This document shows positions 9,626 through 52,725 of a DNA stretch of 64,000 bases, piece after piece; position 1 is the first letter of the stretch, and every line of letters starts with the position of its first letter. The notes beneath the pieces were generated by a model, which did not search any database, had not been told where the DNA came from, and was given only the letters and a program-made list of their open reading frames with translations. The stretch lies in sequence record PZ445488.1; one strand, written 5' to 3'. The position numbers were made by a program, and so were the translations under genes. This DNA comes from a phage.

Positions 9626-10105
9626 TTAGAAATATTTTTTGTATGAATTGATTACATTTTGGTCTACATCATTATCAATTTGTGCGACAAGATAAGAACT
9701 GATTTCAACTTCCTGAGGAGCTGCTTGAACTAAATCAGAGTTCAGATATTCACGAATCCAAGGATACGGATGCTTGGTCGGAGCATCAGTGATTGGGCAT
9801 GGCAAACCACACTGTTTCATACGAGACACGGTCAAGTAATCAACAAAAGCACACATACTCTGCGTATTGATACCTGGACATGTACCATCTTTAAAGAGGT
9901 GTGCAGCCCATTCCTTCTCTTGACTATTTACTTCCATAAAAATGTCAACTGCTTCTTGTTCACATTCTTTAGCAATTTGAACCCACTCATCACCGTCAGT
10001 ACCAGATTGAAGTTGACGGATAATGTACTGAGTACCCTTGAGATGGAGTTGTTCGTCACGAGCAATGAACTTCATAATCTTTGCATTGCCTTCCATGATT
10101 TCCAT
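9626..10105 (-). CDS. nrdB: ribonucleotide reductase small subunit, exon 2 (3' splice site approximate, within about 50 nt upstream of 10105)
   Basis: MEGNAKI...ARDEQLHL aligns with E. coli NrdB EXXH iron-ligand region; ORF-track Met is not a true start. Confidence 0.8.
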   Translation of the reverse strand: MEIMEGNAKIMKFIARDEQLHLKGTQYIIRQLQSGTDGDEWVQIAKECEQEAVDIFMEVNSQEKEWAAHLFKDGTCPGINTQSMCAFVDYLTVSRMKQCGLPCPITDAPTKHPYPWIREYLNSDLVQAAPQEVEISSYLVAQIDNDVDQNVINSYKKYF

Positions 10106-11217
10106 GTTCTTATGGAAGTTAAAGGTACCGTTATGTTCGATTGAGCTCGCTAATTCTCAACCCGTTCTCTTATGAACTGCTACATATTACTATGCAGACC
10201 AGACTATATCACAATCCCAGAGGGATTCTCCCCATTTCGAGTCGCTTGACCCTACGTCCGAAGACTAGTCGTTGAACCTTGCTTTGCAATTGTCGCCGTG
10301 CCATCGTTTATATGTTGATGGTGATAAATCTTTCTTATCACAATATGGACAATTCAATTGAATTCTATTTGGATTTAATTTACATCTGTCATTATGTTTT
10401 AGATAAAATCCAGGACCTTTACCAATGTGACCGCAGAAATCACATGTGATTTCTTTTTGTGCAGGATGGGTCCCGTTCTTAACCATTTCTAATGTTTTTG
10501 CTGATGTTCTTTTCTTATGGCCTTCTGACAAGAAATGATGTGAACCGTCATTTACCCGTTTTGATTGAGTTTCTGACTGCATTTTACCACCGCAAAATAC
10601 ATGAGTACCTTCTTTTATAGCTGCAATATTGCGTTCTTTAACTTTTGCAATATGCTCAGCTTGTTGAAAATTATGTATACCTAATGCAACTCTATTTAAA
10701 TTAGATTTACGCTGTATTTCACCGTCTAAAAGATGAAATGTACCATTTTCTATCTTAGATTTAATAGAGGCAATATTTTTAGCTCGTACTTCAGGGATAT
10801 TAAAAATCTGGATTTCTCTAGATTTTGCGGCTTTAGAAGCTAATTCAGAAATTTCTTCAGGAGAATATTTCATTCTAAGCTTTATAGCATGACAAGCCTG
10901 GTAATCTTTTTGAGCTAAATGTATATCATAATGTTCCTGTATAGAAAGGCACATCAAATTATCTAAATCATTATTTTCACGGTTACCGTCTTTATGATGG
11001 ATTTCGTATGTTCTTCCATCAGAATCTTTAGGTATAGGTCCGTTAGCATCTATCCAAATTTTTCTATAGTTCAATTGTGCATCCTCTTAAAAGTATAATC
11101 ATATTTATATTATACTAATTAAAGGTGCAAGCAAAACCTTGGCTGCTAGTTTTCCTATAAAGGACTTTCCAGCAATTAAAGGAGTTTTCTATAAACGTTA
11201 CCGTTTAAAGGCGCATT
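10106..11217 (-). mobile_element. group I intron in nrdB carrying an HNH homing endonuclease gene (boundaries approximate)
   Basis: conserved NrdB sequence is interrupted for about 1.1 kb; exon 1 ends in a stop right after RFYVSFA; a free-standing HNH ORF lies inside; T4/RB3 have an intron at this gene. Confidence 0.75.
10265..11074 (-). CDS. HNH homing endonuclease (I-TevIII-like), intron-encoded
   Basis: 269 aa; HNH motif EIHHKDGNRENNDLDNLMCLSIQEHYDIH; Cys-rich C-terminal region (CPYCDKK). Confidence 0.8.
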   Translation of the reverse strand: MNYRKIWIDANGPIPKDSDGRTYEIHHKDGNRENNDLDNLMCLSIQEHYDIHLAQKDYQACHAIKLRMKYSPEEISELASKAAKSREIQIFNIPEVRAKNIASIKSKIENGTFHLLDGEIQRKSNLNRVALGIHNFQQAEHIAKVKERNIAAIKEGTHVFCGGKMQSETQSKRVNDGSHHFLSEGHKKRTSAKTLEMVKNGTHPAQKEITCDFCGHIGKGPGFYLKHNDRCKLNPNRIQLNCPYCDKKDLSPSTYKRWHGDNCKARFND

Positions 11218-11895
11218 TTACGCAAAAGATACATAAAAACGAATAGCTTCTAAGGCATTAATAACGTGTAAACAGAGGTAAAGAGATTTCATTAAAGCAC
11301 GTTTAGCTTCGGCTTCTTGTTTAATAGCTCGGTTTAAACGAAAATCAGCATCAGGAGATTCTTTAGCTAGTTCTACAAATTCTTTAGCATTTTCCCATTC
11401 ACGGGTTTTAATCAGAACGTCATCATAATAACGTCCAATGGATTCAGCGCGTTTCATAATAGCTTCATCTAATACAATTTCATCAAATACCTTCGATGGA
11501 TCGGTATAAAGATTTCGCATAATATGAGTATACGAACGAGAGTGAATAGTTTCACTGAATGTCCATGTTGCGACCCATGTATCTAATGAAGGGTCAGAAA
11601 TAAGTGCCATAAGTACCGCAGATGGGGCCCTGCCTTGGATAGAATCTAATAATGATTGATACTTAAGATTGTTTGTAAAGATGTCCTGTTGGAACTGAGG
11701 AAGCTTATTGAACTGCGCGGAGTCCAACATCAAGTTTACCTCTTCTGGGCGCCAGAAAAACGACAATTGCTTTTCAATAAGTTCTTCGAAAACTTTATGA
11801 CGCTGAATATCATACCGTGCGAGGCCAAGACCAGAACCAAAGAACATCGGCTCATTCAAAACATCGACTTGTTGCGTGTTAAAAACTGTACTCAT
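11218..11895 (-). CDS. nrdB: ribonucleotide reductase small subunit, exon 1
   Basis: 225-aa N-terminal part ending ...EAIRFYVSFA followed by in-frame stop inside the intron. Confidence 0.85.
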   Translation of the reverse strand: MSTVFNTQQVDVLNEPMFFGSGLGLARYDIQRHKVFEELIEKQLSFFWRPEEVNLMLDSAQFNKLPQFQQDIFTNNLKYQSLLDSIQGRAPSAVLMALISDPSLDTWVATWTFSETIHSRSYTHIMRNLYTDPSKVFDEIVLDEAIMKRAESIGRYYDDVLIKTREWENAKEFVELAKESPDADFRLNRAIKQEAEAKRALMKSLYLCLHVINALEAIRFYVSFA

Positions 11896-14294: not shown

Positions 14295-14549
14295 TTAATT
14301 ATTCTTAGCAATAATTTCTTTGTATTCTTTAGGTGTCAAGACTGTGATATTGAAATAAACCAACGGTTCTTTTTCCATACCGTAACCACCACAAAATTCA
14401 CGATATTCATAAATTCGTTCGTGTGAATGACAAATGAATCGTTCACCTTTAACTGTGATTTCACTATTTGGTGAAGGGATATCCAGTTCGGTAGGATTTT
14501 TCATTTCAAAAATTGTGGTGCCATATGAATTAATAAAACGTAAAATCAT
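14295..14549 (-). CDS. hypothetical protein (nrdA.1 position)
   Basis: 84-aa ORF between nrdA and td. Confidence 0.4.
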   Translation of the reverse strand: MILRFINSYGTTIFEMKNPTELDIPSPNSEITVKGERFICHSHERIYEYREFCGGYGMEKEPLVYFNITVLTPKEYKEIIAKNN

Positions 14550-17716: not shown

Positions 17717-17800
17717 TATATTTACCTTTATTTAGATTATTTAGATTATTTAATTTATTTACAGTTGGTTGCTACGACACTTATACCTCGTAGCTGGTAT
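17717..17800 (-). promoter_or_regulatory. gene 32 translational operator (repeated AU-rich elements plus upstream stem/pseudoknot-like hairpin)
   Basis: mRNA leader contains stem GCUACGA...UCGUAGC followed by repeated UAAAUAA elements before the AUG; analogous to T4 gene 32 autoregulatory site. Confidence 0.45.
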
Positions 17801-23100: not shown

Positions 23101-23939
23101 CTTCTGATAATAAAGTATCATTTAATATTAATGGAACACTTTATTCAACAGGTATTGTTTCTACAAATGGATTAAATGTTACAGGTGTTTCTACCTTTAC
23201 CGGGCCTATTAGTGCTACAGGTGAAATTGTTTCTAGTTCTCCTATTGCATTCAGAGCTATTAACGGTAACTATGGTGTTATGCTTTATAATGCTGGTGAC
23301 AATTCTTATATTGCATTAACTAACTCAGGTGACCAGACTGGGACGTTTAATAACTTACGCCCGATCACGATTAACAATGCCACAGGACTGGTTCGTCTTG
23401 ACAACGGTGTTCAAATCACAAGTGGTGCAACAATAACTACCGGCGGGTTAACTGTAAATAACAGGATTATTTCTAACGGCGTTAAAACTGCCACGGTTTA
23501 TACCGATAAACCAACAGCTTCTACTGTAGGTTTTTGGTCTATTGACATTAACGATTCTGCCGTATATAGCCAATTCCCTGGATACTGGACGCGTGATAAC
23601 AAAGGTAACCGTGACCAAGAAATTAAATATCCTGGTACTTTGACTCAATTCGGCAATAGCTTAGATTCGCTTTATCAGGATTGGATTTGTTATCCTACAG
23701 GTGCAAATGGTGGTAGTATTCGTTATACTCGTACCTGGCAGAAAAATAAAGATGCTTGGACTTCATTTGCAATGGTATTTGATAGTGGCAACCCACCTTC
23801 ACCTAGCGATGTCGGTGCTATCCCGTCTGATAATGCTGTTATTGGAAACCTTACTATTCGAGACTTCTTACAATTAGGAAATGTGAGAATTGTTCCAGAC
23901 CCGGTTAACAAAACAGTTAAATTTATATGGGTTGAATAA
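20106..23939 (+). CDS. 34: long tail fibre proximal subunit gp34
   Basis: 1277 aa; first gene of the plus-strand late block; repeated ATQAE/ETxxG segments typical of the gp34 shaft. Confidence 0.9.
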   Translation: MADIKRKFRAEDGLDAGGDKIVNVALADRTVGTDGVNVDFLVQENTVQVYDSTRGYNKGFVVLYDNRLYQAINDIVSPSGAFNLLQWRAVRTDAQWITVASGTYQLSSGESISVNTGAGNDMVFTLPNTPVDGDTVVLADIGGRTGTVKVQINASVQSILNFRGEQVRTVLMTRPRSQLLFVFSNRLWQMYITDYGKESITVTPATPYQAQANDFIVRRFTSAAPINITLPRNANNGDIISLVDLDRLNPLYHTFVKTFDDTTSIGEVGTHIAEGRNDSDAFFVFDAANSLWRIWEGDQKSRLRIIRADSNIRPNEEVLIFGTNNATTGTINLTLPTGILSGDTVKISMNYMRKGQTVKIKAAEGDTIASTVALLQFPKRSEYPPDAQWVSVTELEFNGTTSYVPVLELAYIEDTVAGTRYWVVQQNVPTVERVDAGTDATRARLGVIALATQAQANVDLENTPAKEVAITPETLANRTATEARRGIAKIATTAQVNQNSTATFVDDTIVTPKKLNERTATETRRGLAEIATQAETDAGLDDTTIITPKKLQARQGSETLSGIVKYVSTTSATPAETRGTAGTNVYNKTVNNLTISPKALDQYKATYAQQGAVILAIDSEVIAGQSQSGYSHAVVTPETLHKKTSTDGRIGLIEIATQAETNTGTDYTRAVTPKTLNDRKATEGLSGIAEIATQVEFDTGTDDTRISSPLKIKTHFNSSDRTSVNSDSGLIEEGTLWNHYTLDISKANETQRGTLRVATQAESNAGTLDDVLITPKKLLGTKSTETSEGVIKVATQAETVTGTSANTAVSPKNLKWIVQNEPTWAATTAIRGFVKTSSGSITFVGNDTVGSTQPLESYEKNSYAISPYELNRVLANYLPLKAKAVDSNLLDGLDSLQFIRRDIDQTVNGSLSLTKQTNLSAPLVSTSTASFGSEASVTRRLTLNDSSGSEIVFTKGTQSLSNKENFVVRAWGNSSTDGARDTVFEAGDETGYHFYSQRASDNKVSFNINGTLYSTGIVSTNGLNVTGVSTFTGPISATGEIVSSSPIAFRAINGNYGVMLYNAGDNSYIALTNSGDQTGTFNNLRPITINNATGLVRLDNGVQITSGATITTGGLTVNNRIISNGVKTATVYTDKPTASTVGFWSIDINDSAVYSQFPGYWTRDNKGNRDQEIKYPGTLTQFGNSLDSLYQDWICYPTGANGGSIRYTRTWQKNKDAWTSFAMVFDSGNPPSPSDVGAIPSDNAVIGNLTIRDFLQLGNVRIVPDPVNKTVKFIWVE

Positions 23940-23947
23940 GAGGTTAT

Positions 23948-25072
23948 ATGGAAAAATTTATGGCAAGGTTTGGACAGGGATACGTCCAAACGCCGTTTTT
24001 ATCGGAAAGCAATTCAGTTAGATTTAAACTAAGTATAGCGGGTTCATGCCCGCTTTCAACAACTAATCCGTATATTTTGTTCCAAAACGAGCCTTTAGGG
24101 TTGCAGTCTTTTGGTATTGGACTAAATGTTAGGGTAATAAATCCGGAAAATGGAACTATAGTTGATAGTAAATTATACAATTTTGCGCCTACAAATAATG
24201 CAACTTCGGCCGCGTTTATTTCGTTTGTTAATACATACGCAGATAATTTCATTTTCGCATTTATTTCTAATAACAAATTTAATTTGCCGCCAGAAATAAT
24301 TGGATGGTTTAAAGCTGCTGGGAGTTCAGTTATACCGTCAATTGAAGTTGCTAGTCTTGTTGATATTTCATATTCAGCGTTTTATGTTTCAGGTAAAAAT
24401 ACTATTGCATTAGAACACATAAAATACAGTAATAAGAAAACAATTTCTGATTACGCAACTCCATTAGATATTGTATATGACTCTATTGCTGATATAGGTG
24501 CTACCGGCTATCCTAGACGTACATATGAAGCTCTAGAAACGTTTTTATCTCCTGTTGGAGGAACTAACAATGAAATAAAAAGGGTGCCTACATCATCTCT
24601 TGTTACTCCTATCGCAAACTATGGATTAAAGCCTACAGATTTTCTTTATTTGAAATTTCAATTAATGGCTGATGAAGCATTACTAGAGGAAGGAACCACA
24701 AGACTTTCAATTCGTTTCTTTAAGACTCCATCTAGCTCTCCTATATTGTCTAAAGATATAAACTTTGATGGAACTGCTGGTGAATGGAAGTTATACGAAG
24801 AATACGTTGAAATACCAGCTGAAGCCGATGGCTTTACAGTATATTGTTACCGTACGGCCCCAGTCGGTCAAGGTGGACTAAGAAATGTTATTTTCACTGA
24901 AGTATCATGTAACGGAAGTATAGCAAAACCTGCCGAGTTTGGCCTAAACGGTATTCGTGCTAATTACATCGATGAATCATTAATCGGTAATGATATAATG
25001 GACTTGCCTACTCAGTTATCTAACGACACAGGTAAGGTATTTGGGCAGGAATTTAAAGAGTACACAGAATAA
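23948..25072 (+). CDS. 35: long tail fibre hinge protein gp35
   Basis: 374 aa, syntenic. Confidence 0.8.
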   Translation: MEKFMARFGQGYVQTPFLSESNSVRFKLSIAGSCPLSTTNPYILFQNEPLGLQSFGIGLNVRVINPENGTIVDSKLYNFAPTNNATSAAFISFVNTYADNFIFAFISNNKFNLPPEIIGWFKAAGSSVIPSIEVASLVDISYSAFYVSGKNTIALEHIKYSNKKTISDYATPLDIVYDSIADIGATGYPRRTYEALETFLSPVGGTNNEIKRVPTSSLVTPIANYGLKPTDFLYLKFQLMADEALLEEGTTRLSIRFFKTPSSSPILSKDINFDGTAGEWKLYEEYVEIPAEADGFTVYCYRTAPVGQGGLRNVIFTEVSCNGSIAKPAEFGLNGIRANYIDESLIGNDIMDLPTQLSNDTGKVFGQEFKEYTE

Positions 25073-32749: not shown

Positions 32750-33382
32750 TCACAGTACGTTAGTTACAAGGGTAATGATTTCTTTAGACACATTAGGGAA
32801 GTCAATGTAAGTATATTTACCACCGATCTTAATCTTAACATCATTTTCAAGAGAAGTAAACAGCTTTGATTCAGTTTCTGACATGTTGTATGCAAAGATT
32901 CTAAGAGCGCCATCTCGTCGAATTTCAATTTGGCGAATGCCTAGAACTCGTTTAGCGAATCGAACTTCTAAGTTACTACGGTTTTCACCAATTTCTTTAA
33001 CTTCAACTTTATCTTTAATATTTTCAAAAACAAAGTTTGCTAATTCATGCATTTCAGGAGTAACTCCACGTGCTTTTCTGGTGTTACGTTTCTGAAGAAG
33101 TTCTGGAGCATTTTCTTGAGCAAATAGGTCTGCAGCTTTTTGGATAATATCCATTGCTTCGCCGGTTGCCACAAGTCCATCACCAGATTTTTCGACTAAA
33201 CCTTTCTTAATCAATACACCAATGTTAGAGTTAACAACTGATGCATTGTATTCTGCTTCCAGAGCTTCACGGACATTGGCAGCAGTGGTGAAGTTGTTCT
33301 TAATGATATAAACCATTATTGCAGCAGTTTTTTCATTCAGAGTGTTTTCAGAAGCTTTGATGATGTAAGTAACTTTAGACAT
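32750..33382 (-). CDS. motA: middle-transcription activator MotA
   Basis: 210 aa; MSKVTYIIKAS...VVNSNIGVLIKKGLVEKSGDGL... matches remembered T4 MotA. Confidence 0.9.
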   Translation of the reverse strand: MSKVTYIIKASENTLNEKTAAIMVYIIKNNFTTAANVREALEAEYNASVVNSNIGVLIKKGLVEKSGDGLVATGEAMDIIQKAADLFAQENAPELLQKRNTRKARGVTPEMHELANFVFENIKDKVEVKEIGENRSNLEVRFAKRVLGIRQIEIRRDGALRIFAYNMSETESKLFTSLENDVKIKIGGKYTYIDFPNVSKEIITLVTNVL

Positions 33383-33415
33383 TTTATTTCTCCAAATTAG
33401 TATTTTTTTTTGATA

Positions 33416-33450
33416 GGTCTATAATATCATGTTTGAAGCAAAAGTAAACT
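33416..33450 (-). promoter_or_regulatory. early promoter for motA with MotA-box-like TGCTTCA in spacer; copy A of a duplicated promoter/leader
   Basis: GTTTACttttGCTTCAaacatgaTATTATAG on minus strand; duplicated at 33737..33771. Confidence 0.5.
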
Positions 33451-33486
33451 TTATTTTGGGCTCTTTTTCAAAAGCCCTGGTAAAAT

Positions 33487-33702
33487 TTACAAACTCATTT
33501 CTTTAATAAGGCTAATAAGTTTTGCCTTTTTAGAACGAAGCTTTTCTAAATGATACCCGTTTGAACCGCGAACAACTAAAGAATTGATTTCAACTTCTAA
33601 GAAATTTAATTCTTCAACAAGTGCTTTACGGGGAGCATTCATACCAGGTTTAACTTTACCGAAACGAGTAGTTGTGTTTTGGGTTAATTTCATTTTAGAC
33701 AT
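33487..33702 (-). CDS. hypothetical basic protein (71 aa) sharing leader and MSK start with motA
   Basis: identical 5' leader and ATGTCTAAA start as motA. Confidence 0.45.
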   Translation of the reverse strand: MSKMKLTQNTTTRFGKVKPGMNAPRKALVEELNFLEVEINSLVVRGSNGYHLEKLRSKKAKLISLIKEMSL

Positions 33703-42295: not shown

Positions 42296-44114
42296 AGGAC
42301 ATCCATTCTTTACGAAGTTCTGAATCATCACCCAACAACATTTCAAAGAGTTCTTTCCAATTTTCAGGAAGTTTAACTACGTCGTACACAGGGTTCTGAA
42401 TCATTTCACGATACTCTGACTTTTCAAGGGAGCCCAATCCCTTGATGTATCGAATACTATGCTTAGGCAGCGTATCTTTAACTTCTTCATACTCAGCTAC
42501 AGTATAAAACCATTTTTGAGTTTTGCCAATTTGTGCAATAATTACAGGTGTTTTAACAAAGCGAATACGTCCTTGTTCAAACAATTCAGGCCAATTACTA
42601 AAGAAAGCAAGCAAAGCAGGATAAATACTTCCAAGGCCGTCATGATCGGCATCGGTCATAATTGCAATATTACGATAGTTCGTATTCTCTGCCTTTTCAC
42701 CAAGAATAAGACCTGTGATAGCACAGATATCAAAGAGCTCTTTGTTCTTCATCATATCAGCATATGACATACCCCAGCTATTCATCACCTTACCACGTAA
42801 TGGGAATCCGCCGTGTAGTTCACGGTCACGAACATCAATGAGATAACCAATTGCCGAATCACCTTCTGTTAAGAACAATGTCGTATCTGCATCTTTACCA
42901 CATTGGTTAGCTTTAATATGCTTATGAACCTTAGCTTTAGTTGCCTTTTTAGCTGCTTTAGTTTCTGCGGCCTTTTCTGCTGCCAATTTACGAGCTAATG
43001 CTGCTTCAATTATAGGCATTAAAACTGCTTCAGAATTCAAAATATTTTTTGCCAATTTTTTGGTATCTAATTTAATATGCGTCCGAATTTCGCCATAAGG
43101 ACTTGTTAAACGCTCTTTGGTTTGGGAATCAAAACGAAGGTTCTTCATTCCACGAACGAACATTAAGAGAGTGAGACATTCCTTGATGCGCGCTTTAGTC
43201 ACGTCGATTTTATATTTGCGTTTAATAGCCGGAATTAATTCTTCGCAAATGTCGTCCATCACACATTCAATGTGATGACCGCCATTTTTGGTATGGATGT
43301 TATTAACATAAGTTAAATGACGGAAGCCATCTGGTGACCGACCAATGGCAATAGAGCATCCATCTTGTTCTTGAATGACGGTCTCTTCATCAAATTGTTT
43401 AGCAAACTTCTTAAAGTTACCTTTAATCCTTTTGCCATTAAATTTAAATTCAATACCAGGATAAACGACTGCCAATGTTTGGAGCCGGTCTATAGTAATA
43501 TCTTGGTATATTTTTTCAAATTGATTCATTTCAAAATGAGAGAAATCAGGAATAAACTCGACCTTAGTCCCGTTGTTTTTAGACGGCTTAGATTTCCAAG
43601 AAATATTATCAGCATTATTAGAACAATTAACTGTCAATTCGTTTTTACCATCTGAAGTAGTGCCAACAAAAGAGACAGAAAAAATATTTGTTAATGAAGA
43701 ACCGACACCGTTTTGTCCACCCGTAACACGTTCTTTGTCGTCACCAAAGTTGCCACCAGCTTTTGTACGTGTCCACGCCGCAACTGGTCCTGGAATTTCT
43801 TCTCCTTCAGGAGTAATAACTGTTTCTTGAGGAATACCTCGTCCATTATCTTCAACAGTCACTTTATTAGAATTTAAATCAATACTAACAGAAATTTTAT
43901 TAGCATATTTGAAATTGGTTCGAATAGCTTCATCTACCGAGTTGTCAATAATTTCATCAATTAATTTGAGAACACCTGCAACATATTTAACCTTTTTAAA
44001 TTCACCGAATAGGAAACGTTCTTGTTCTTCATTGGCAACACTTCCAATATACATGCCAGGACGCTTCAAACAATGCTCTTTATCAGATAGCATTTCAATT
44101 TTATTATCAATCAT
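42294..44114 (-). CDS. 39: DNA topoisomerase II large subunit, fused 39/60 form; start set at MIDNKIEM
   Basis: 606 aa continuous ORF; GyrB-like ATPase and Toprim regions; longer than T4 gp39 alone, consistent with the unsplit form. Confidence 0.9.
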   Translation of the reverse strand: MIDNKIEMLSDKEHCLKRPGMYIGSVANEEQERFLFGEFKKVKYVAGVLKLIDEIIDNSVDEAIRTNFKYANKISVSIDLNSNKVTVEDNGRGIPQETVITPEGEEIPGPVAAWTRTKAGGNFGDDKERVTGGQNGVGSSLTNIFSVSFVGTTSDGKNELTVNCSNNADNISWKSKPSKNNGTKVEFIPDFSHFEMNQFEKIYQDITIDRLQTLAVVYPGIEFKFNGKRIKGNFKKFAKQFDEETVIQEQDGCSIAIGRSPDGFRHLTYVNNIHTKNGGHHIECVMDDICEELIPAIKRKYKIDVTKARIKECLTLLMFVRGMKNLRFDSQTKERLTSPYGEIRTHIKLDTKKLAKNILNSEAVLMPIIEAALARKLAAEKAAETKAAKKATKAKVHKHIKANQCGKDADTTLFLTEGDSAIGYLIDVRDRELHGGFPLRGKVMNSWGMSYADMMKNKELFDICAITGLILGEKAENTNYRNIAIMTDADHDGLGSIYPALLAFFSNWPELFEQGRIRFVKTPVIIAQIGKTQKWFYTVAEYEEVKDTLPKHSIRYIKGLGSLEKSEYREMIQNPVYDVVKLPENWKELFEMLLGDDSELRKEWMS

Positions 44115-48951: not shown

Positions 48952-50265
48952 TCAAATAAAATGGACGTCAAAACGACCGCGAGTTGTGCCGACATACAAT
49001 AACTGTTTAGCTAATTCTGAATCAGCATAATGGATACACGGTGTATAAACAAAGGCCGTGTCAACAGACATACCCTGGGCCTTATGGAAGGTTGATACTG
49101 GTAGTGCCTTCACCTTAGTGAACATACGTTTAGCATCCCAGAATTCACTCCATGGAGCTTTACCACCTTTATTCCAGAATTTGTATGTTTCTGCTGTCTT
49201 AGCCAAAAACAAATTGAATTTATAAAGCTCTTCTTCAGAAGAAATAACCTTTATATCCTCGCGGACGTATTCTTCATCATCCACATATGTTTCTACTGTA
49301 AGATTCCAATATCGTATCATATACTCGCCTGAAACACCACGTGCTTTAACGAATGTAGACGTTTCTACAGCATCTCGAATACGAACGAATTGCCCGTTAT
49401 TGAAAAGCATTTCGGTCATATTTTTGCCATCTAGCTTATACGTCTTGGTAAACGGCTCTTGTAGAACAATGACCTCGTCTTTAATAAATGGTTTTTCTGT
49501 TTCGAGAAGTTTTCGGCGAATAATTGAATTCAACTTATCTACTGACTTATTTGTGAATGCCATCATTCGATTTTCGAAAAGGTCTTCAGGAGTTTTAACG
49601 ACGTTAAAATAGTTCATCATATACGATTTAAGGTCTGTATATCCATGAACACCGTGCCCATCAACTACTTTATCGTAAATCCATTTGCCATTACGAATAT
49701 CAGTCGCAACATCAATAATTGGTGCATTGCTACGTTTAACTTCTGTAAGGTTGCATTGCACGAAGTCTTTGTGAGTGAAGAAAGGACTTAGATACGCAGT
49801 TGATTCGCCTGGGTCTACCGGTCGAATTTGACATCGGTCGCCGATTCCAATTACTGTGCACCATTTAGGGATACTAGCTAACATTATTTTAAACAGAGAA
49901 CGGTCACACATTGACGCTTCATCAAATAACAGTACACGACACAAGGCTAAGTCGGGAACCTTTTTCTGTTCAAATAATACGTTTTCTTCGTATGTAGTTG
50001 GGTTGATTTTAAGAATGCTATGAATAGTCGATGCTTCTTGACCTGCAAGTTTGCTTAGAACCTTTTTAGCAGCGTGTGTAGGGGCTGCTAAAATAATACC
50101 TGATTCTCCAGAAGAAATAAGGGCTTCAACGATGAATCTAGTAAGGGTTGTTTTACCTGTACCAGCAGGCCCATTAATAGTTACGTGATGTTTCTTTTCT
50201 TTAATAGCTTTCATAACAACGTTGAAGGCGTTTTTCTGGCCTTCGGTCAAATCGTCAAATGTCAT
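48952..50265 (-). CDS. dda: Dda DNA helicase (SF1B)
   Basis: 437 aa; Walker A GPAGTGKTT, LLFDEASM, C-terminal VGTTRGR motifs. Confidence 0.9.
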   Translation of the reverse strand: MTFDDLTEGQKNAFNVVMKAIKEKKHHVTINGPAGTGKTTLTRFIVEALISSGESGIILAAPTHAAKKVLSKLAGQEASTIHSILKINPTTYEENVLFEQKKVPDLALCRVLLFDEASMCDRSLFKIMLASIPKWCTVIGIGDRCQIRPVDPGESTAYLSPFFTHKDFVQCNLTEVKRSNAPIIDVATDIRNGKWIYDKVVDGHGVHGYTDLKSYMMNYFNVVKTPEDLFENRMMAFTNKSVDKLNSIIRRKLLETEKPFIKDEVIVLQEPFTKTYKLDGKNMTEMLFNNGQFVRIRDAVETSTFVKARGVSGEYMIRYWNLTVETYVDDEEYVREDIKVISSEEELYKFNLFLAKTAETYKFWNKGGKAPWSEFWDAKRMFTKVKALPVSTFHKAQGMSVDTAFVYTPCIHYADSELAKQLLYVGTTRGRFDVHFI

Positions 50266-50573
50266 CGTAAAGTCCCTGCAATTGGAATACTAACAATACG
50301 ACCCGTGTCCAGGATTCGTTGATATAATCTTTGCGTCTCCGCATCTAGTTTAACGTGTTTCATTTCAAGCTTATTAAACCAGAACTTACGCGGAGTTTCG
50401 ACCATTCTTAGAACTCCCATTTTTAAATCTGTTTTATACTGTGTTTTCAAAGTATCGAAAACTTTATCTGCAATATCCTTTCTAAAAAATACTGCAGGAC
50501 GATGTTCATCAAGTGGAACCGGGACAGTAAATCCTTCCATATCTCGATAAACTATTGCATATACATAAACCAT
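50262..50573 (-). CDS. hypothetical protein (dda.1 position)
   Basis: 103-aa ORF. Confidence 0.4.
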   Translation of the reverse strand: MVYVYAIVYRDMEGFTVPVPLDEHRPAVFFRKDIADKVFDTLKTQYKTDLKMGVLRMVETPRKFWFNKLEMKHVKLDAETQRLYQRILDTGRIVSIPIAGTLR

Positions 50574-50575
50574 AA

Positions 50576-51324
50576 TTAACCTTTAATCAGTTGGAATAAT
50601 GATGCGCTAAGTGGTAAGCCACGTTTCAATTTTAATTTACCAATGAAACCAATCTTTTCAAAACGTTGCAGACCTTGGATAACTTTATCATATGTATCGA
50701 AAAGCGATTCAGCGTCAGTTAATTTAGTTTTAGTTTTCCAGTCAGAGCCTTTAAGAAGAACATTGAGTTTAGTAAGTTCATGTCCTTCCGCTTGATGTGA
50801 ACCATTAATGCGTGCTTTCAAAGCAACAATTCTAAGTTTAGATTCGTTAGATAAAGGTTGATTTTTCATCATGTTCGCCATATGCTTAACACGATTTTCA
50901 CGTTTTGCTCGGATTTTTAAAATAGTACCATAAACCTTTTTAATTTGGGCCCATTTCTTCTCGTCGAGATTAAGTTTCTCTACTTTACGGACAGAAGGAT
51001 TAGCGATACGTCTTGCAATGGCATCACGTTTCTCAATAAGTTCTTCTAATGTTAAATCAGAACGAGCCGTGTTATATTTTTTCTTAACTGGGATAACATT
51101 ACCTTTAATGTATCCTATATCGTTATTAAAACGTTCTAAGGATAATTTCTCACCTTCAACAGAGTTATTGAAAGATTCACCTGAGTAAGCGCAGACCTTT
51201 TGATCAAGAATGTTTTTAAGGTAATTAAAGTCTAAGTTAAAATCCTTAGAGCGTCTCTTCGCAGAAGCTCTGGTGTGGTAAAGACGACGATTGATTTTTT
51301 TTTAATTTTATTATTTGATAACAT
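50576..51324 (-). CDS. srd-position gene interrupted by a -1 frame change at an A9 run near codon 10 (about 249 aa if read through)
   Basis: ATG at 51322-51324 opens MLSNNKIKKK then frame closes after 25 codons; the long ORF 50576..51301 is in the -1 frame and joins if the A9 run (51295-51303) is read as A10; identity with T4 Srd not verified. Confidence 0.4.
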
Positions 51325-51477
51325 AATATTTTCCTCTGTCTTACGGACGTTAAGGTCATTTAGCTGATAAGCTTATAATATCATGCCCTCAGGTAGTGTA
51401 CACTCTTTTTTCATAAAATGCTTTAATTTTTTATGTGTTATAATGGTTTTGAGTTCCATCCGGTTATTCCAATCCAG

Positions 51478-52086
51478 TCAGTAACCGACAATAGACAGAT
51501 TCCAGATTGTATAACGTCCATCTTGAATAATAGAATCTACACGCAGTGTAGTCCCTATAGGGAGCATAAATTCACATTCGTCAGATATAAGTCTAGCATT
51601 AGACCGTCTTGTCGCTTCAGGGAAAGCTCCATTGAACTCACAAGATGGCGCAGCCAGAATCATGTTAAGCATATGTTCACGGAAGTTGAAAGCAAATGGT
51701 GCATCTTTGATGCAGAACATATTAAATGTTCCATAAAAATTATATGAAGCGAAGTTACGTGCTACACCGAACACTGGACTAAAGCTCATTACTCTGTCAA
51801 ATTTAATAATACTACCAATGCCTTTATCAACAAGTGTGGCCATAGTTTTCTTAGAGATTCCACGATACATTGTCTCAGGAACTGAAGACGTCCAATTTCT
51901 ACGAACAATTGCACTTAAATCTTGTTGAATGCTATCAGGCTTGTTTTCCATACACTGCCATAGTACACTTTGTTCAATGTCGCTGAATTGCTCATCGATT
52001 TTGTACTGAAGCATATCTTGATAATCCGGGCATTGAGCACGACGAACCATTTCTTCAATTTCACACTCGTTATACGGCATAAACAT
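51478..52086 (-). CDS. modA: ADP-ribosyltransferase, ModA/ModB family
   Basis: 202 aa; Arg (YRG), Ser-x-Ser-like (FSP) and E-x-E (ECEFM) signature elements; which paralogue is modA versus modB is by position only. Confidence 0.6.
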   Translation of the reverse strand: MFMPYNECEIEEMVRRAQCPDYQDMLQYKIDEQFSDIEQSVLWQCMENKPDSIQQDLSAIVRRNWTSSVPETMYRGISKKTMATLVDKGIGSIIKFDRVMSFSPVFGVARNFASYNFYGTFNMFCIKDAPFAFNFREHMLNMILAAPSCEFNGAFPEATRRSNARLISDECEFMLPIGTTLRVDSIIQDGRYTIWNLSIVGY

Positions 52087-52143: not shown

Positions 52144-52725
52144 CTAAAAATTCAACATTTTCAAATGAATGATTTTGTATAACCGAGATAAAGGGTCATA
52201 TTCTAAGTCTTCAATTTCTACAATCTCAAATCTAGAGATACCTGAGACCATATATTCTTGTTCAGATTCAATCATATCTAGGACGTCAACACGTTTTTCT
52301 TCCATAACATGCTTAGGGTTCTTTCCGGCGAGTACAATGTTAATCATGTTTTGGTAGTAATCAAAAATGAATGGAGCATTCCTGAGACTAAGAATAGTGT
52401 ACGTCTGATATTCCCAACTCCCAGAGAACTGTCTGGCCGTACCAAAGTCTGTTGTAAACGATGTTACTCGTCCAGGAGACCAATGGCATCCAACAGAAAG
52501 AAGGGAAAGACGTTCTACTTCTTCTGGAGTTACACCACGATAGAGTTCTACTGGTACTGTAGAAGTCATATGCTTACGAACAAGATGGTCTAATTCATAG
52601 TGGAAATCTGGGTCTTCCTTATAATCAGTGCAAGCCCAGAGAATGTTTTGTTCTTGTTTAGTGAATTTATCATCAATTAGTGCTGCGAGATATTCGCGTT
52701 CTTGAAGTTCAGATTGACATGTCAT
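52144..52725 (-). CDS. modB: ADP-ribosyltransferase, ModA/ModB family
   Basis: 193 aa; paralogue of previous ORF (LYRG, WSP, EQEYM). Confidence 0.6.
   Translation of the reverse strand: MTCQSELQEREYLAALIDDKFTKQEQNILWACTDYKEDPDFHYELDHLVRKHMTSTVPVELYRGVTPEEVERLSLLSVGCHWSPGRVTSFTTDFGTARQFSGSWEYQTYTILSLRNAPFIFDYYQNMINIVLAGKNPKHVMEEKRVDVLDMIESEQEYMVSGISRFEIVEIEDLEYDPLSRLYKIIHLKMLNF

Follow-up and report, generated by a model that had tools for sequence, protein, structure and literature searches.

A run of nine adenines, apparently private to the strain, interrupts srd in the sequence of Escherichia phage CEV1

Slippery runs and the Srd protein in described systems

Homopolymer frameshifts of the Streisinger type are classical in the T-even phages, where rII and lysozyme contain the known hotspots. 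They arise by the gain or loss of a base in a run during replication. A-runs can also lead to a change of frame when a gene is expressed. In E. coli, the heptamer C-AAA-AAA near a start codon, as in the attB1 site of pDEST17, gives 25-60% of the -1 trans-frame product with no dedicated stimulators, although these values were obtained under T7-driven overexpression and may not hold in other settings (PMC1851650). The A_AAA_AAG heptamer of E. coli dnaX, on the other hand, is conserved and is flanked by a Shine-Dalgarno-like element on its 5' side and a hairpin on its 3' side.

A second route is slippage of the RNA polymerase. Transcriptional slippage in bacteria becomes significant at nine A or T residues (PMC1088944), and the E. 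coli enzyme slips only weakly on poly(A), with slippage detectable once there are 8 A's or more (PMC6260861). The A11 run of Citrobacter rodentium tssM1 is the worked example of slippage rescue (PMC4256274), and A9 runs have been described in Thermus dnaX and in IS elements (PMC1088944). In these cases, at least nine A's on the sense strand precede a premature stop, and one added A restores the frame. The runs are conserved or required, and both products are functional.

The gene considered here belongs to the family of Srd (dda.2) of phage T4. T4 Srd is an early protein that stimulates host RNase E; according to Qi et al. 2015, as cited in three papers (PMC7430671, PMC4980113, PMC9409239), it reportedly binds the catalytic half of the enzyme and speeds the decay of host mRNA. 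It had earlier been proposed as a sigma-70/sigma-S decoy (PMC7430671, PMC4980113).

The srd locus of CEV1 and its relatives

The window, i.e., the whole stretch of 64,000 nucleotides that was analysed, comes from Escherichia phage CEV1, an RB69-like Mosigvirus of the species Mosigvirus utam. The gene interrupted in it is, judged by homology, srd, the RB69-group orthologue of T4 Srd. It occupies the conserved position of srd in the order modB (52144-52725), modA (51478-52086), srd, dda.1 (50262-50573) and dda (48952-50265), all on the minus strand; as in T4, it lies between modA and dda.1/dda. Over a 1.1-kb region here, about 158 phage records show 98% identity, and they carry an intact 747-nt CDS annotated as 'Srd anti-sigma factor'. 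With its frame repaired, the CEV1 protein matches PHROG 1400, also named 'Srd anti-sigma factor', over residues 5-249 (E=1.8e-97). It is 92-98% identical to the closest full-length RB69-group clusters (P0005-P0011) and 68% identical to cluster P0015, which we take to be the T4-type Srd cluster. A Pfam search with Srd returned no family and one sub-threshold hit to Ribosomal_S21.

A separate observation concerns the fold of the protein. The N-terminal ~100 residues of Srd also match the PHROGs of HNH endonucleases and endonuclease VII, with E values from 2e-18 to 6e-11. By eye, the motif SLERFNN..GY..GNVIPV..KYN can be recognised, with an arginine at the place where HNH nucleases have their first histidine. 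From these matches, Srd may be a degenerate HNH-fold protein.

What distinguishes CEV1 from T4 is that its ORF is split after codon 10 by the A9 run. Upstream of the gene, a promoter-like site (TGTACA, a 16-nt spacer and TATTAT, with TG; 51375..51402, minus strand) is called from its consensus match, and its sequence is common to the relatives. The Shine-Dalgarno sequence GAGG (51336-51333, minus strand) lies 8 nt 5' of the start codon and is identical in all aligned relatives. The minus-strand ATG at 51324-51322 opens M-L-S-N-N-K-I and is followed, at codons 8-10, by nine A's at 51303-51295 (T9 on the plus strand). The sequence confirms in this the original prediction, which had reported the start codon, the reading MLSNNKIKKK and the run. 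Frame 0 then continues for 20 codons past the last AAA, and not for the 15 codons given there, up to the TAG at 51234-51232. The frame-0 ORF (51232..51324, minus strand) is 30 aa long (MLSNNKIKKKSIVVFTTPELLRRDALRILT), and its first 7-10 residues alone match Srd.

The body of srd lies in the -1 frame (50576..51301, minus strand). This frame is closed on its 5' side by the TAA at 51304-51302, remains open from 51301 to 50579 and stops with the TAA at 50578-50576. It contains 241 sense codons. Instead of one uninterrupted ORF of ~248 aa, the CEV1 gene consists of 30 codons in frame 0 and 241 codons in frame -1. Chance does not account for the open -1 frame, which is ~98% identical to the annotated srd of RB69-like phages and matches PHROG 1400. 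Since it lacks ATG, GTG and TTG codons upstream of 50881, the ORF listing shows just a 101-aa ORF in this frame.

At the run itself, the slippery heptamer A_AAA_AAA and the slippage-prone A9 noted in the original prediction are indeed present. A3_A4A5A6_A7A8A9 (51301-51295) fits X_XXY_YYZ and is phased with the zero frame (codons AAA AAA AAA). The site shares with pDEST17 attB1 and E. coli dnaX a lysine-codon heptamer near the start, a downstream ORF in the -1 frame and E. coli as the host; however, the stimulatory elements and the conservation seen in dnaX have no counterpart in CEV1. Similarly, it shares with tssM1 and the Thermus dnaX and IS runs the stretch of at least nine sense A's before a premature stop and the repair by one added A. 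In contrast to those conserved or required runs with two functional products, the CEV1 run is strain-private and encodes a 30-aa stub in frame 0. The window strongly avoids long homopolymers: six runs of at least 7 are present against ~26 expected from base composition, with none of length 8 and two of length 9. The presence of A9 within a coding region is therefore exceptional here.

The original prediction had proposed a comparison of the run length with related phages. In RB69, vB_EQ1, LH01, SA79RD, F2 and HX01, the corresponding codons read ATT AAC AAA ATC (I-N-K-I), whereas CEV1 reads ATT AAA AAA AAA TC. The difference is a C->A substitution together with two extra A's, and not one missing A. 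The sequence confirms the earlier statement that A10 would mend the frame, and A7 would do so as well. Explicit alignments of 12 relatives and three IMG/VR or metagenome copies gave AACAAAA or AATAAAA in every case. A 101-nt query centred on the A9 retrieved 153 full-coverage phage records, none above 96% identity; each of the 30 listed aligns over 99 nt with 96.0% identity, as expected from AACAAAA together with a G/T difference close by (GAC). The same-species phage Shf125875 is among the records without the A9. Variable-gap DNA scans for any run length found one copy in IMG/VR and two in JGI metagenomes, all AACAAAA. Neither the A9 nor the two-frame arrangement occurs among the ~153 full-length phage records or the IMG/VR and metagenome copies found, in which srd is intact at 747 nt. 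In an exact protein look-up, the 30-aa frame-0 peptide was absent from every public assembly. Going by these comparisons, the A9 run is private to CEV1.

The protein family gives a similar picture. The N-termini of Srd homologues read INKI, IRKI or IKKI, and an extra residue at the run is never seen among the close homologues. In the 249-aa homologues, the additional residue sits at the extreme N-terminus (MKLSNN) and not at the run. The first invariant residue across the homologues is R14, just 3' of the A9 site.

In the 749 nt compared with the 12 relatives, the private changes of CEV1 srd are the A9, an adjacent Asp->Tyr and two synonymous sites. Five codons past the A9, where all close homologues have Asp or Glu, CEV1 has the Asp->Tyr change (GAC->TAC; 51278..51280, minus strand). 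The same change is found in a contig of the 2014 CEV1 draft, and it is therefore not an artefact of the present assembly. No second stop or indel was found in the 241 downstream codons, so the change in srd is recent (or not real). A long-standing pseudogene was considered and rejected, as srd shows just one lesion, with all 241 codons open and no private downstream changes beyond those just named.

The other 9-mer of the window is intergenic, at 33403-33411, with T9 on the plus strand and A9 on the motA strand. It lies 21 nt upstream of the motA ATG (33382) and just downstream of a TATTAT -10-like element. In HX01 this run reads AAAACAAA, with a single C interrupting it, whereas CEV1 has the A9, again private to CEV1. 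Among 206 interrupted A/T runs alignable to HX01, 177 are unchanged, 27 show ordinary substitutions and 2 have become pure, namely those in srd and in the motA leader. A systematic artefact that purifies A..C..A runs (e.g., a modified cytosine) is ruled out by these counts. That both runs are exactly nine long may be a coincidence, the effect of a read length ceiling or the result of selection.

Explanations of the run in srd

The reading that we favour, with about even confidence, is that the A9 is a real replication-slippage frameshift allele of srd, an early accessory gene, and that it is strain-private and recent. We infer that nine is the true majority length of the run in the phage stock. 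In the proposed course of events, the ancestral ATT AAC AAA ATC would have lost its interrupting C (C->A) at codons 8-10, and the pure A-run would then have gained A's by replication slippage. Nine A's would put the conserved body of srd in the -1 frame. The outcome would be an ordinary Streisinger-type allele with no evolved recoding device. As in the classical mutations, a replicating T-even-type phage would have altered the length of an A-run in a non-essential gene; there would be no difference in kind, with the path of C-loss and later expansion reconstructed from the relatives.

Such a lesion is probably leaky, because the phased A_AAA_AAA heptamer is combined with a 9-A run. A few ribosomes would slip by -1 and a few transcripts would gain one A. 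Either route would give the same 249-aa Srd (...IKKKINRR...), with ...NNKIKKKINRRLYH... as the junction across the run, and this product would differ from that of the relatives only in the poorly conserved N-terminal leader. Some full-length Srd is thus probably still made from the A9 allele.

The promoter-like site, the Shine-Dalgarno sequence, the ATG and the 241 codons are all intact, which is consistent with a real and recent allele. Furthermore, srd is found broken elsewhere. An exact protein look-up found the 101-aa C-terminal fragment called as a gene of its own on seven other contigs, and their alignment showed independent lesions at other positions of srd. In OR352945.1 (phage AV115), the lesion is A6->A5 in AAG AAA AAA TAT; in SRR6379779, AG is deleted from AGAG; and in DRR869236, one A is deleted from TTTAATTAC. 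In two ENA contigs (ERZ27296274 and ERZ1745232), the 5' half of srd is replaced by 61 nt of unrelated sequence, for which no match was found in the phage collection. Some of these lesions may also be errors. Taken together, they suggest that srd is recurrently disrupted in RB69-like phages and readily lost during propagation. Mutants of srd are probably viable, and the isolates that carry a broken copy fit an accessory gene that is dispensable to the phage.

Certain findings weigh against a real A9. Broken srd is rare overall, the distinction between 9 and 10 bases is the hardest homopolymer call for most platforms, and the length of exactly nine in both private runs could hint at a read length ceiling. 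It is quite possible, though not our first choice, that the run was miscalled and the consensus lost one A. The true run would then be A10 (ATT AAA AAA AAA ATC), encoding an intact 249-aa Srd with one extra Lys. One base would restore the frame, in what is the longest coding homopolymer of the window, and the rest of srd is pristine. The distant homologues P0016 and P0018 carry an extra residue in this very alignment column and evidently tolerate it.

The 2014 CEV1 draft also points to trouble at this place. All 14 contigs of the draft, which is marked UNVERIFIED and has names of the form contig000NN, were mapped onto the window, and six holes were found within it. One of them, of 13 nt (51294-51306), covers ATT-A9-T exactly at the srd site. 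On one side of the hole, KM389397.1 ('UNVERIFIED: Escherichia phage CEV1 clone contig00012') starts one base past the T adjoining the A9; on the other side, KM389390.1 (contig00005) stops four bases short of the run. Over 3,542 and 12,694 nt, respectively, the two contigs agree with the window without a mismatch or gap, and on this account the window is identified as CEV1. The remaining holes are of 440 nt (9795-10234, in the nrdB region), 78 nt (17719-17796), 127 nt (23892-24018), 150 nt (33338-33487) and 18 nt (43713-43730). The last of these (TTGTCCACCCGTAACACG) contains no homopolymer or obvious repeat. As draft holes also occur in such places, the hole at the A9 is suggestive of trouble and not specific evidence of a miscall. 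The 9-mer of the motA leader was considered as a control for the draft and set aside: the 150-nt hole in which it sits coincides with a local repeat, and it is uninformative on homopolymers.

Independent assemblies were sought through exact copies of ModA and Dda and through the contigs with the 101-aa fragment. CEV1-identical contigs were found in SRR547807 and SRR1518976, and none of them spans the A9. A Logan contig from SRR547807 starts inside the A6 run of srd, which adds to the case for a miscall. A search of the literature for a finished CEV1 genome found nothing.

The quality of the window, however, argues the other way. It differs from the draft contigs by three indels and six substitutions and is therefore not the draft stitched together. 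In all three indels, the draft is one base short at a homopolymer (TT->T, T6->T5 and A5->A4, at window positions 14367, 16323 and 23742; contigs KM389394.1 and KM389395.1). This undercalling in the draft is in keeping with a miscall at the A9, but the window corrects these errors. It agrees with HX01 at every testable difference, i.e., at the five of five alignable to HX01, including two homopolymer sites; at a sixth, the window version sits in an open 1,288-codon frame. Among the 113 HX01 ORFs matched in the window, 107 are full-length in a single frame, and a simple frameshift accounts for none of the six exceptions. Owing to the agreement with HX01 and the intactness of the ORFs, the window is taken as the more accurate assembly, with homopolymers up to 7 correct. 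It holds no other coding run of at least 8 that could serve as a control for the A9 call. The 2014 draft is not to be used for judging reading frames.

One of the six exceptions is nrdB (9626-11895, minus strand), which is split into 11218-11895 and ~9626-10126 by a 1.1-kb insert and is uninterrupted in HX01. The insert carries a 269-aa HNH-type endonuclease ORF (10265-11074, EIHHKDGNRENN...), in which three of the six substitutions between window and draft fall. It looks like a mobile intron or a homing-endonuclease insertion; an Rfam search of the split nrdB found no group I intron at the gathering threshold.

Exact look-ups of the A10 and A7 products and of the ancestral-type product with CEV1 residues found none of them among ~15 billion proteins. 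This is weak evidence against a miscall, as CEV1 is barely represented there, and only by draft contigs. The sequencing error put forward in the original prediction is quite possible, although the 64-kb window itself has no other simple gene frameshift. The real allele is placed first because the window is the better assembly and srd has been lost elsewhere; this weighting is tempered by the fragile call between 9 and 10 and by the failure of the draft at the site.

The original prediction had also allowed for production of the full-length protein by recoding. A recoding signal on which the phage relies is not supported by the analysis, and it is improbable that the A9 is kept to set a low, tunable level of Srd, by programmed -1 frameshifting or transcriptional slippage, or to turn srd on and off as the run varies in length among the phages of a population. 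Such a role would suit the phased heptamer and the 9-A run, and uses of this kind have been published for the A11 of tssM (PMC4256274) and the A9 of Thermus dnaX and IS elements (PMC1088944). The second private A9, of the same origin, lies in the 5' leader of motA, another regulator of the takeover of host transcription, and the draft hole could reflect a real heterogeneity of length in the stock. The tract, however, is present in none of the ~153 relatives, the same species included. Of the features expected at a programmed -1 site, the phased heptamer is present, whereas conservation and stimulatory elements are lacking. The 70 nt downstream have a folding energy of -13.2 kcal/mol, which 33 of 200 shuffles equal or better (z=-1.08), so that no significant structure is seen. 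The sequence 3' of the A9 is nearly identical to that of relatives which need no frameshift. No internal Shine-Dalgarno-like element precedes the run, as the 21 nt from the ATG to the run hold just the G of the ATG itself. For programmed transcriptional slippage, a run of at least 9 A or T is present, but neither a conserved tract nor a pair of functional products is found; the frame-0 product is a 30-aa peptide without a counterpart on record. Other lineages break srd at non-slippery sites, which fits simple loss and not regulation. It can be said with high confidence that the A9 is not an evolved recoding element.

A still bolder proposal is that the A9 tracts of srd and the motA leader are hypermutable, slippage-prone 'dimmer' elements, a contingency-locus strategy in a lytic T-even-type phage. 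We give it very little credence. If true, it would provide a low, heritable-but-reversible expression of two regulators of host-transcription takeover.

Least probable of all is that a truncated product with residual Srd function is made, either the 101-aa C-terminal fragment (50576..50881, minus strand, first ATG at 50881) or a re-initiation fragment. The 101-aa fragment is the sole conventional ORF left in the -1 frame, and gene callers give it in other assemblies with a broken srd as well. However, its ATG has no apparent Shine-Dalgarno in front of it (...CGTGTTAAGCATATGGCG), and it lacks residues 14-107, i.e., the most conserved N-terminal half with most of the invariant columns. Intact genomes never have it as a gene of its own; it is confined to those with a disrupted srd.

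Meaning for CEV1 and for Srd

The locus calls for caution in annotation. A phased heptamer, a 9-A run and a long -1 frame together mimic recoding, and it is the relatives that reveal either an accident in one strain or a miscall of one base. CEV1 srd should be flagged as frameshifted or in need of verification, and not annotated as a programmed frameshift. CEV1 is a phage that has been studied for the control of E. coli O157:H7. With the A9 as a real allele, it may be a natural srd hypomorph and could then be useful for understanding the role of Srd-stimulated RNase E outside T4.
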